Assembly (NCBI RefSeq): GCF_001677475.2
Contig: NZ_CP015229.1
DNA: 64,000 bases
Direction: 5' to 3' (one strand)
DNA from: Escherichia coli
GTDB lineage: Bacteria; Pseudomonadota; Gammaproteobacteria; Enterobacterales; Enterobacteriaceae
The position numbers and the translations under genes were made by a program. The first letter of the stretch is position 1. Each line of letters starts with the position of its first letter. Of this stretch, positions 29,050-49,718 are shown piece by piece. Below the pieces are notes generated by a model that made no database searches, was not told the origin of the DNA, and saw nothing but the letters and a program-made list of their open reading frames with translations.

Positions 29050-29176
29050 AATTATCCTGAAATCAAGCTAACGAAATATCGCCACCAGCTCCAGCGTGTC
29101 TTAACCGCCGGGCTGGTAACTGAAAAGTGGGAATAAGATAAGTTTTCTTGACTGGGAAGTAAAATACCGTATGCGT

Positions 29177-29677
29177 TCAGTCGGCAAAATTTCGCCAAAT
29201 ATCCTGGATATCTTCCATCAGATAGCCACGATAGAGCAGAAAACGCTGGATCTTAACTTTTTCTGAAAAGACAGTTGGCAAAGGTTCACCATATTTTCGC
29301 GTCGCCTGATCGCGCGCCAGTGCGCACCAGTCGATGTCACATTCACGCATCGCTTTTTCTGTCGCTTCGCGGGAAATACCTTTCTGATTCAGTTCCTGAC
29401 GAATACGCGCAGGTCCATAACCTTTGCGGCTACGGCTGGCGATAAAGCGCGCAACAAATCGGCTGTCATCAAGATAGCCATGTTCATGGCACCAGGCAAT
29501 AACGCGCTCGTAATCTTCTGCCGTGGCATCAATCTCTTCCGGGCCATTTTTGCCCATAATCGGTGCCGCGAGTTTACGTCGCAGTTCTTGCTCACTGTGA
29601 TCGCGCACCGCCAGAATGCGTACCGCACGATCCAACAGGCGAGCATATGCCGGGCGACGGGACGTTGATTCTGTCAT
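29177..29677 (-). CDS. recX: RecA inhibitor RecX
   Basis: 166-aa ORF downstream of recA on the same strand; recognised RecX sequence. Confidence 0.9.
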
Positions 29678-29837
29678 GGCATATCCTTACAACTTAAAAA
29701 AGCAAAAGGGTCGCAGATGCGACCCAGGTTTTGCTGATAAACAGATTTAATAGTCAATGAGTGTGCAGAATGTTCCCGCAGGCCCAATTCGTTAGAAGAT
29801 CGAGGTGAGAGTAATTTTTCACGCCAGTGCTGACCTG

Positions 29838-29879
29838 TTCCCCTCACCCTCACCCTCTCCCCAAAGGGGCGAGGGGACC
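29838..29879. repeat. GC-rich imperfect palindromic element in the recA-recX spacer
   Basis: ttcccctcaccctcaccctctccccaaaggggcgaggggacc. Confidence 0.5.
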
Positions 29880-29919
29880 GTCCGTGCACACATTATCTAT
29901 TATCATCAATAACGAACGA

Positions 29920-31060
<1,141 letters not shown>

Positions 31061-31558
31061 TCAAGTGTTTTGTAGAAATTGTTGCCACAAGGTCTGCAAT
31101 GCATACGCAGTAGCCCGACGACGCACCGCATCACGGTCACCGCTGAAGCATTCCCGCCGGATAATGCCTTCACCGCGGGCAGTGGCAAAAGCAAACCAGA
31201 CGGTGCCGACAGGCTTCTCTTCACTGCCGCCATCCGGCCCGGCGATACCACTAATAGACACGGCATAATCAGCACGAGCCGCTTTCAGTGCGCCTATCGC
31301 CATTTCCACCACGACGGGTTCGCTCACCGCGCCATGCTGCGCCAGCGTCTCTTCGCGTACGCCGATCATTTGCGCTTTCGCTTCGTTACTGTAGGTGACA
31401 AATCCGCGTTCAAACCAGGCGGAACTGCCGGCAATATCGGTAATCACTTTCGCTACCCAACCACCGGTACAAGACTCAGCAGTTGTTACGGTTGCGCCAC
31501 GGGCTTTCAGCGCCTGCCCAACCTGTTCGCTTAACTGCATCAGTTCACTGTCAGTCAT
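31061..31558 (-). CDS. pncC: NMN amidohydrolase PncC (YgaD)
   Basis: CinA-C-domain-like ORF (31061..31561 in the track) directly upstream of recA. Confidence 0.85.
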   Translation of the reverse strand: MTDSELMQLSEQVGQALKARGATVTTAESCTGGWVAKVITDIAGSSAWFERGFVTYSNEAKAQMIGVREETLAQHGAVSEPVVVEMAIGALKAARADYAVSISGIAGPDGGSEEKPVGTVWFAFATARGEGIIRRECFSGDRDAVRRRATAYALQTLWQQFLQNT

Positions 31559-42279: not shown

Positions 42280-42366
<87 letters not shown>

Positions 42367-49636: not shown

Positions 49637-49718
49637 GCCGGATGTGGCGTGAACGCCTTATCCGGCTTACATAGTTCGTGCGACATGTAGGCCCGATAAG
49701 CGCAGCGCATCGGGCAAT
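49637..49718. repeat. REP/BIME palindromic repeats downstream of ascB
   Basis: gccggatgtggcgtgaacgccttatccggcttaca and atgtaggcccgataagcgcagcgcatcgggcaat. Confidence 0.65.

Follow-up and report, generated by a model that had tools for sequence, protein, structure and literature searches.

The recA-recX spacer of this Escherichia coli genome is enlarged by a 190-nt composite copy of the BoxC/TMECO repeat, which lies directly upstream of the recA terminator. The long spacer is a common E. coli polymorphism and is not peculiar to this genome. The insert is probably an ordinary, near-neutral copy of a dispersed repeat, not a regulator.

The window, i.e., the whole stretch of 64,000 nucleotides of contig NZ_CP015229.1 that was analysed, carries alaS, recX, recA, pncC and mltB on its minus strand, and this K-12 gene order was established from the open reading frame (ORF) list. 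The spacer between the recA stop and the recX start (29678-29919) is 242-bp-long. In comparison, the same spacer has only 68 bp in the K-12-type strain JB41. The expansion relative to K-12, which the earlier note had proposed, is thus borne out by the alignment with the K-12-type allele: the two spacers are not of equal length and sequence, and the window has 174 bp more. In the pairwise allele alignment, 190 nt of the window (29726-29915) stand where the short allele has 16 nt. The alleles are collinear elsewhere, from recX through the terminator hairpin, and again in the last four spacer bases (ACGA) and recA. The features of the region are as follows.

29177-29677, minus strand: recX coding sequence, 166 aa (ORF list; named recX in matching E. 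coli records)
29678-29707, minus strand: U-tract of the recA terminator, recX leader and ribosome-binding region (invariant in the alignment of the window, the K-12-type strain and E2863)
29708-29725, minus strand: recA intrinsic terminator hairpin with a 7-bp stem and a 4-nt loop, followed by the U-tract (terminator scan and allele alignment)
29726-29915, no strand assigned: whole inserted element, a composite BoxC/TMECO repeat of 190 nt (allele and family alignments)
29726-29744, plus strand: left outer arm AGGTTTTGCTGATAAACAG, abutting the terminator hairpin and homologous to the BIME-1 outer arm (consensus comparison)
29775-29811 (about), plus strand: decayed type-B BoxC/TMECO unit (does not match the motif; in register with the B units of five other loci)
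29812-29839, no strand assigned: linker joining both BoxC units, family consensus TAAATATTCGCGCCAGTGCTGGCCTGTTC (family alignments)
29840-29875, minus strand (recA/recX mRNA-sense): intact BoxC/PIT/TMECO unit, CCCTCGCCCCTTTGGGGAGAGGGTGAGGGTGAGGGG (regex match; compared with Table 1 of PMC4666352)
29897-29915, plus strand: right outer arm CTATTATCATCAATAACGA, the inverted counterpart of the left arm and likewise homologous to that of BIME-1 (consensus comparison)
29920-30981, minus strand: recA coding sequence with its stop codon at 29920-29922 (ORF list, translation checked; recA in matching records)

The long allele was found in 1633 of the 5426 complete E. coli genomes (30%), so that an assembly artefact, considered as the source of the long spacer, is ruled out. 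The remaining complete genomes have a 67-68-bp allele, including K-12-type strains, O157:H7 and an O2:K1:H5 strain. No spacer identical to that of the window was found among the complete E. coli genomes or the retrieved contigs, the best match being 99.1%. The window differs from other long alleles at 4/242 positions, three of them inside the element, and the flanks differ by 1.2%. The distance to the window is the same for short- and long-allele loci, with 2-6 differences in 501 positions of recX and 9-15 in 1000 of recA, so the indel is not tied to the flanking haplotype. Loci with exactly the RecX protein of the window carry either allele. The recX gene itself seems to have divergent haplotypes within E. 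coli: that of the GTDB representative SCPM-O-B-8794 is 94.6% identical to the window's, and other E. coli loci exceed 99%.

The GC-rich palindrome in the spacer, which the earlier note had likened to box-C-type repeats, is by its sequence a BoxC/PIT/TMECO repeat. This assignment comes from the comparison with intergenic repeat families and from a match to the strict motif of Holder et al. 2015 (PMC4666352), CCCTCNCCC-N3-6-GGGNGAGGG-N3-GGGNGAGGG[GTC-]. The regex search with the pattern CCCTCNCCC-N3-6-GGGNGAGGG-N3-GGGNGAGGG has its sole match in the 64-kb window at 29841-29875, on the minus strand. According to the same paper (PMC4666352), TMECO is the repeat that was earlier named BoxC and then PIT. 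The inverted arms of the palindrome (29839-29849 and 29867-29877) are 11-nt-long and 91% complementary, and its 25-nt core occurs once in the window, with no occurrence expected from 100 shuffles. The element is intergenic, located between the recA stop at 29920-29922 and the recX start at 29677. The BoxC repeat is said to have been described before by Bergler 1992 and Bachellier 1996, and the PIT (potential intrastrand triplex) element reportedly by Hoyne/Maher 2000.

The unit of the window is identical to K-12 TMECO no. 7, 11 and 15 (Table 1, PMC4666352) except for one base in loop 2. It is type-A-like, but this loop reads TGA and not TTA, the marker of subtype A (type B has CCG). All the other long alleles examined (E2863, L100, L101 and E1V33) carry TTA, and TGA is a single window-specific substitution in the subtype marker, outside the family pattern. 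The stem blocks needed for a triplex are intact in this copy. A G-quadruplex in the mRNA was also considered, since the G-rich part at 29840-29862 fits the motif; it was rejected, as ViennaRNA favours a hairpin.

The palindrome appears to be merely the intact half of a composite of about 190 nt that also comprises a decayed second BoxC unit and conserved outer arms. The element is homologous over its full length to composites at yggN-yggL, gldA-yijF, alx-sstT, ygfF-gcvP, hrpB-mrcB and fepB-entC, which were aligned together with two single-unit sites. The family order is a left arm GAGATTGCTGATAAAcTGGCTCAATAGTCAATG, a type-B TMECO, the linker TAAATATTCGCGCCAGTGCTGGCCTGTTC, a type-A TMECO on the other strand and a right arm ...ACTTTGTCATCAGTCTGAA. 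The consensus of the left arm is GAGATTGCTGATAAAcTG and that of the right arm ACTTTGTCATCAGTCTGAA; the left arm of the E1V33 allele reads AGAGATTGCTGATAAAC. Within the arms, 29731-29740 and 29900-29909 form an inverted pair. The number of matches per E. coli genome to a query of 194 nt, from the hairpin to recA, has a median of 13, and the TMECO motif was matched at 10 other retrieved loci. In K-12, the tandem inverted arrangement of TMECO is found at 5/18 sites (Holder et al., PMC4666352).

At recA-recX, the paired site of a type-B and an inverted type-A unit has a motif-positive A unit and a B unit that is in register but motif-negative. The type-A unit of the window deviates from the five-locus consensus at a single position out of 42. 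The type-B unit deviates at 13/42 positions and has no regex match, this B-half block being defined as 42 alignment columns (52-93) and thus extending a few nt beyond 29775-29811 on each side. The linker is off consensus at 4/23 positions. As Escherichia sp. E1V33 has the same asymmetry (A unit 0/42, B unit 12/42), the decay of the B unit is old. Such unequal decay (1/42 vs 13/42) is at odds with uniform neutral decay and could result from constraint or gene conversion. Selection against a long perfect palindrome is one candidate; the others are gene conversion from other A copies and constraint on the A motif.

Differences between strains were also seen at two other sites of the family. At hrpB-mrcB, K-12 has a BoxC pair without BIME-type arms and strain Ecol_881 has no pair (L090:300-560 vs L107:220-380). 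About 15 nt at the Ecol_881 site look like a remnant of the right end of the core, which suggests a loss by imprecise deletion. At ygfF-gcvP (L007, query 411-661), homology begins exactly at the BoxC right arm in about 2400 E. coli genomes. Because the ygfF side is unmatched, the repeat marks the edge of a larger presence/absence difference there.

On the mRNA strand, the fold predicted for positions 29726-29919 (194 nt) amounts to one long, imperfect hairpin (-68.7 kcal/mol), in which the left and right arms pair with each other. The whole spacer folds at -89 kcal/mol vs -70.6 ± 4.8 in shuffles (z = -3.8). In the seven family members compared, 37 base pairs join one BoxC half to the other. 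The pairs are mostly invariant, or else broken in the window copy; about a dozen of them are broken in the window and E1V33 copies. Compensatory changes were sought across the seven members and none of the 37 pairs covaries, so that a hairpin selected through compensatory base changes was rejected. The predicted long hairpin is a property of the palindromic repeat itself. With 13/42 positions of the B half altered, this hairpin is not being maintained at recA-recX. An Rfam scan at a permissive E-value found no family in this sequence, the only hit being a chance match to Antizyme_FSE (18.4 bits vs a gathering score of 40; E = 1.4).

The terminator hairpin with its U-tract, placed just before recX by the earlier note, is indeed present at 29708-29725. 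On the coding strand (29725-29708) it reads GGGTCGCATCTGCGACCC then TTTTGCTTTT, a stem-loop of seven pairs, six of them GC, followed by a U-tract, as in an intrinsic terminator. It is conserved in most of 79 Enterobacteriaceae RecX loci. The terminator, the U-tract and the recX ribosome-binding region are as in K-12, save for one stem base. At 29711 the window has T where other alleles have C, which turns a U-G wobble of the RNA stem into U-A. This substitution is window-specific and absent from the K-12-type, E2863, L099-L106 and E1V33 alleles. The predicted stem energy is -12.9 kcal/mol vs -12.3 in K-12. The one hint of an effect in the anatomy is that the left arm places GCAAAA directly 5' of the hairpin, an A-tract that is predicted to be able to pair with the U-tract. 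With the new A-tract included, the extended terminator structure reaches -19.6 kcal/mol vs -16.6 in K-12, and this could alter termination efficiency somewhat. The hairpin still forms in the full-length predicted fold of the spacer. A promoter and terminator scan of 29100-31200 detected no further terminator-like or promoter-like site in the spacer.

As the element lies upstream of the terminator, it is expected in the 3' UTR of every recA transcript, not in the read-through ones alone. recX is co-transcribed with recA and down-regulated at the transcriptional and translational levels, giving about 500-fold less protein, according to PMC9252578, where Pages et al. 2003 is summarised.

Among the 79 RecX loci of Enterobacteriaceae species representatives, spacers of 66-72 bp form the commonest class. 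They are found in Enterobacter, Klebsiella, Kosakonia, Raoultella, Citrobacter and others, and also in E. whittamii. E. albertii has the short-type 20 nt and a hairpin beside the recA stop. Because about 68 bp is usual in Enterobacteriaceae and E. albertii keeps the short type, the short allele is ancestral and the BoxC allele derived. Escherichia sp. E1V33 carries the same 242-bp allele, with a spacer 93% identical to that of the window vs 96-97% in recX, recA and alaS. Its presence there at 93% identity indicates that the long allele is old. The ends of the insert are blurred, no target-site duplication is seen, and the short allele's 16 nt bear a weak resemblance to the arms. It is thus conceivable, though unlikely, that the short allele in Escherichia is itself the product of a very old excision.

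Different genera carry different inserts in this spacer, which is therefore a recurrent site of landing or retention for small repeats. In Escherichia sp. MOD1-EC7003 it is 1022-bp-long (L011:479-1500). Beside the recA stop lies what a deletion has left of the BoxC composite; five units in tandem come next, each of about 170 bp and made of a terminator-like hairpin and a BIME-1. The E. albertii spacer has 238 bp (L013:1263-1500). Its short-type 20 nt are followed by a first hairpin, now decayed, then by a BIME-1 with its arms and finally by another hairpin, which is intact. Beside this intact hairpin, the arm (…TTTGTCAGCAAAACCT) has the unusual 'GCAAAACCT' variant, which is common to the BoxC arm of the window. 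Further genera have other small inserts in this spacer (103-195 bp; L025, L066/L071, L014-L016, L019-L021, L038, L043 and L046). The one of Silvania confinis (L025; …GAGTCCCCAGGAGCTTACTCCAGTAAGTGACTGGGGTGAGCG…) we take to be ERIC/IRU-like. Citrobacter and Salmonella arizonae have an extra spacer segment of about 45 nt in common.

A role of the insert as regulatory RNA is improbable. The structured element would alter the transcription or translation of recX, or the lifetime of the recA and recX mRNA, and shift the RecA:RecX ratio. Possible routes are a change in terminator folding, cleavage of the hairpin by RNase III or RNase E, and protection of the 3' end. Such a role would fit with the co-transcription of the insert with recA, its very stable predicted hairpin and the pairing of the A-tract with the U-tract. 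It would also fit with the fact that REP/BIME and ERIC hairpins can change the stability of the mRNAs carrying them. The dependence of recX expression on co-transcription with recA and its strong down-regulation, as summarised in PMC9252578, point in the same direction. However, the scan gives no additional terminator-like or promoter-like site, and the terminator, its U-tract and the recX leader have stayed the same. Around 70% of E. coli do without the insert, and neither the flanking haplotypes nor the RecX protein sort with it. Moreover, half of the hairpin has decayed and the same repeat is present in many unrelated intergenic contexts. Earlier functional tests of PIT elements, as reported in PMC4666352, gave neither promoter nor terminator activity, and no effect was seen in vivo. 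The change in the RecA:RecX ratio raised by the earlier note is not suggested by the anatomy of the region and is unsupported, though not refuted.

An effect at the level of DNA structure is quite unlikely as well. In this case the BoxC unit would form an intrastrand purine-motif triplex, a hairpin or a cruciform on the transiently single-stranded lagging-strand template, so that replication stalling, deletions and repeat turnover would be concentrated in the recA-recX spacer. According to PMC4666352, TMECO oligonucleotides adopt a stable triplex in vitro and E. coli strains differ more at TMECO loci than at control loci, but in vivo footprinting in the same work gave no support for a stable triplex. 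At this locus, the A-type unit was kept while its partner decayed. The spacer is also variable in Escherichia (short, BoxC, the E. albertii BIME and the 1022-bp array of MOD1-EC7003), and the loss at hrpB-mrcB was imprecise. This variability is equally explained by the preference of repeats for terminator-proximal sites, and the allele has been stable for long enough to diverge by 7% between species. It is very improbable that the insert encodes a small protein or a small RNA. A GTG-started ORF of 71 codons (29674-29889, minus strand) does span the spacer, and at yggN-yggL a related repeat is sometimes annotated by PGAP as a hypothetical protein. Nevertheless, this ORF crosses a repeat with copies in both orientations elsewhere and extends into the recX start. 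The long-allele genomes have no annotated CDS at the spacer, which has neither a predicted promoter-like site nor an Rfam family match. The 71-aa ORF was rejected as a by-product of the repeat and is almost certainly spurious.

The insert is best regarded as one copy, close to neutral, of a selfish or structural repeat. Its parts are two BoxC units in inverted orientation, a conserved linker and inverted outer arms of about 17-19 nt of the BIME-1 type. This composite inserted into the 20 nt that separate the recA stop from the terminator hairpin, in an ancestor to part of the genus. Since then it has been passed on and shuffled by recombination, and it is now a common allele of E. coli (about 30%). 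Of the two BoxC units one has decayed, and the terminator downstream of the element is intact. In the 3' UTR of the recA mRNA, the element is predicted to fold into a hairpin of about 150-190 nt. It would add no terminator and no promoter, and recX read-through would most likely be affected little or not at all. Any effect would be a modest change in the stability of the recA mRNA 3' end, or a slightly stronger terminator owing to the A-tract/U-tract pairing. Neutrality is supported by the recX leader, which equals that of K-12, and by the occurrence of both alleles with the same RecX and near-identical flanks. For recA/recX biology the insert matters little, although the long spacer has to be recognised in recA-recX comparison or typing. 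Its modest value is that of a natural experiment: isogenic-like alleles with and without the insert exist in an SOS operon whose leaky terminator is well studied, and bear on whether a BoxC composite in a 3' UTR influences termination or mRNA stability.

The repeat family is thus a known one, of which the recA-recX copy, at a site empty in K-12, was not found described. The K-12 RefSeq annotation lists no repeat features, and 'recA' and 'recX' are absent from two supplementary text files of Holder et al. 2015 (PMC4666352). No use of the term 'TMECO' was found in the literature after that paper. Like the rest of the BoxC/PIT/TMECO family, the element of the window is intergenic, multi-copy and strain-variable; as at 5 of the 18 K-12 sites, its A unit is paired with an inverted B unit, here a decayed one. 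It differs from the family as known in K-12 by its site, which is empty there, and by a B partner that is beyond recognition by the motif.

The element also resembles the MITE-like ERIC/IRU repeats, as both are shorter than 200 bp, intergenic, bounded by terminal inverted repeats, co-transcribed and able to form a long RNA hairpin; the two have no sequence similarity. With 190 nt and arms at 29726-29744 and 29897-29915, it has the small size (< ~300 bp) and the terminal inverted repeats of a MITE. A target-site duplication was looked for in occupied and empty alleles at recA-recX and hrpB-mrcB; there is no flanking direct repeat and the junctions are blurred. We know of no parent transposase or autonomous relative of BoxC. 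The 'RSA' repeat of K-12, with 152 bp and about six copies, may or may not correspond to the paired BoxC composite. TMECO is not associated with transposases, phages or plasmids (PMC4666352).

The element also bears a likeness to BIME-1 (RIB/RIP), which has the outer arms in common with the element of the window and likewise lies directly against a terminator hairpin. The arm consensus of BIME-1 from six independent loci is cAGATTGTTGACAAAGTG ... TTTGTCATCAGTCTCAGG, and that of the BoxC composites is GAGATTGCTGATAAAcTG ... TTTGTCATCAGTCTGAA. The identities (14/17-18 and 15/16) are far above what chance gives in a fixed register. The cores differ: BIME-1 is a Y + Z1 REP pair with an IHF-binding L linker, whereas the element of the window has a BoxC pair, no REP and apparently no L linker. 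No REP-like sequence was found within 29678-29919, and the BIME-1 and BoxC alignments agree in the outer arms only. The linker at 29812-29839 is unrelated in sequence to that of the aligned BIME-1 loci. Each E. coli genome has at least 40 full-length matches to a BIME-1 unit with its arms. The REP/BIME clusters at 42280-42362 and 49637-49710 of the window are without the TGAGATTG…/…TCATCAGTCTCA arms, and since ordinary clusters lack them, the arms are specific to the BIME-1 subtype.

The two kinds of element also share sites. At yggN-yggL and gldA-yijF, K-12 has a BIME-1-type REP pair in the exact slot of the BoxC composite (L004:401-555 vs L088; L005:401-512 vs L089). These sites were considered as empty in the strains without the composite, which was rejected as BIME-1 is present. 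The BoxC and BIME-1 alleles of yggN-yggL keep the same outer arms (GATTGATAACAAA ... TTTGTCATC). At recA-recX the positions are neighbouring, the BIME-1 of E. albertii being located after the hairpin and the BoxC element of E. coli before it. BIME-1 copies at uvrA-yjbR, pitA-uspB, gloC-aspC and the E. albertii recA-recX spacer have a direct duplicate of the local terminator hairpin on both sides, as if the insertion had split a bidirectional terminator in two. The BoxC composite of the window, in contrast to these copies, has a single hairpin.

It is conceivable, though doubtful, that BoxC-pair composites and BIME-1 are two 'cargo' versions of one mosaic frame. The basis of this reading is formed by the inverted arms of 16-19 nt (about TGAGATTGYTRACAA ... 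TTRTCATCAGTCTCA), the terminator-adjacent sites and the slot swaps. Arm-less, core-only BoxC pairs also exist, at hrpB-mrcB and fepB-entC, and a simple reading is therefore that BIME-1 frames tend to receive BoxC cores, by insertion or by exchange. In this simpler version, BoxC cores may insert by preference into resident BIME-1 elements. Bachellier et al. 1997 (Genetics 145:551) reportedly found boxC inserted at the BIME loci of natural isolates, which makes the association of BoxC with BIME partly known; a published description of arms common to BoxC composites and BIME-1 was not found in the accessible literature. If the frame is indeed shared, BoxC would move or be exchanged via the same machinery or recombination pathway as BIME-1. 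This link between BoxC and BIME-1, through arms, slots and terminators, bears on how BoxC/TMECO repeats spread and is the sole lead of wider interest.
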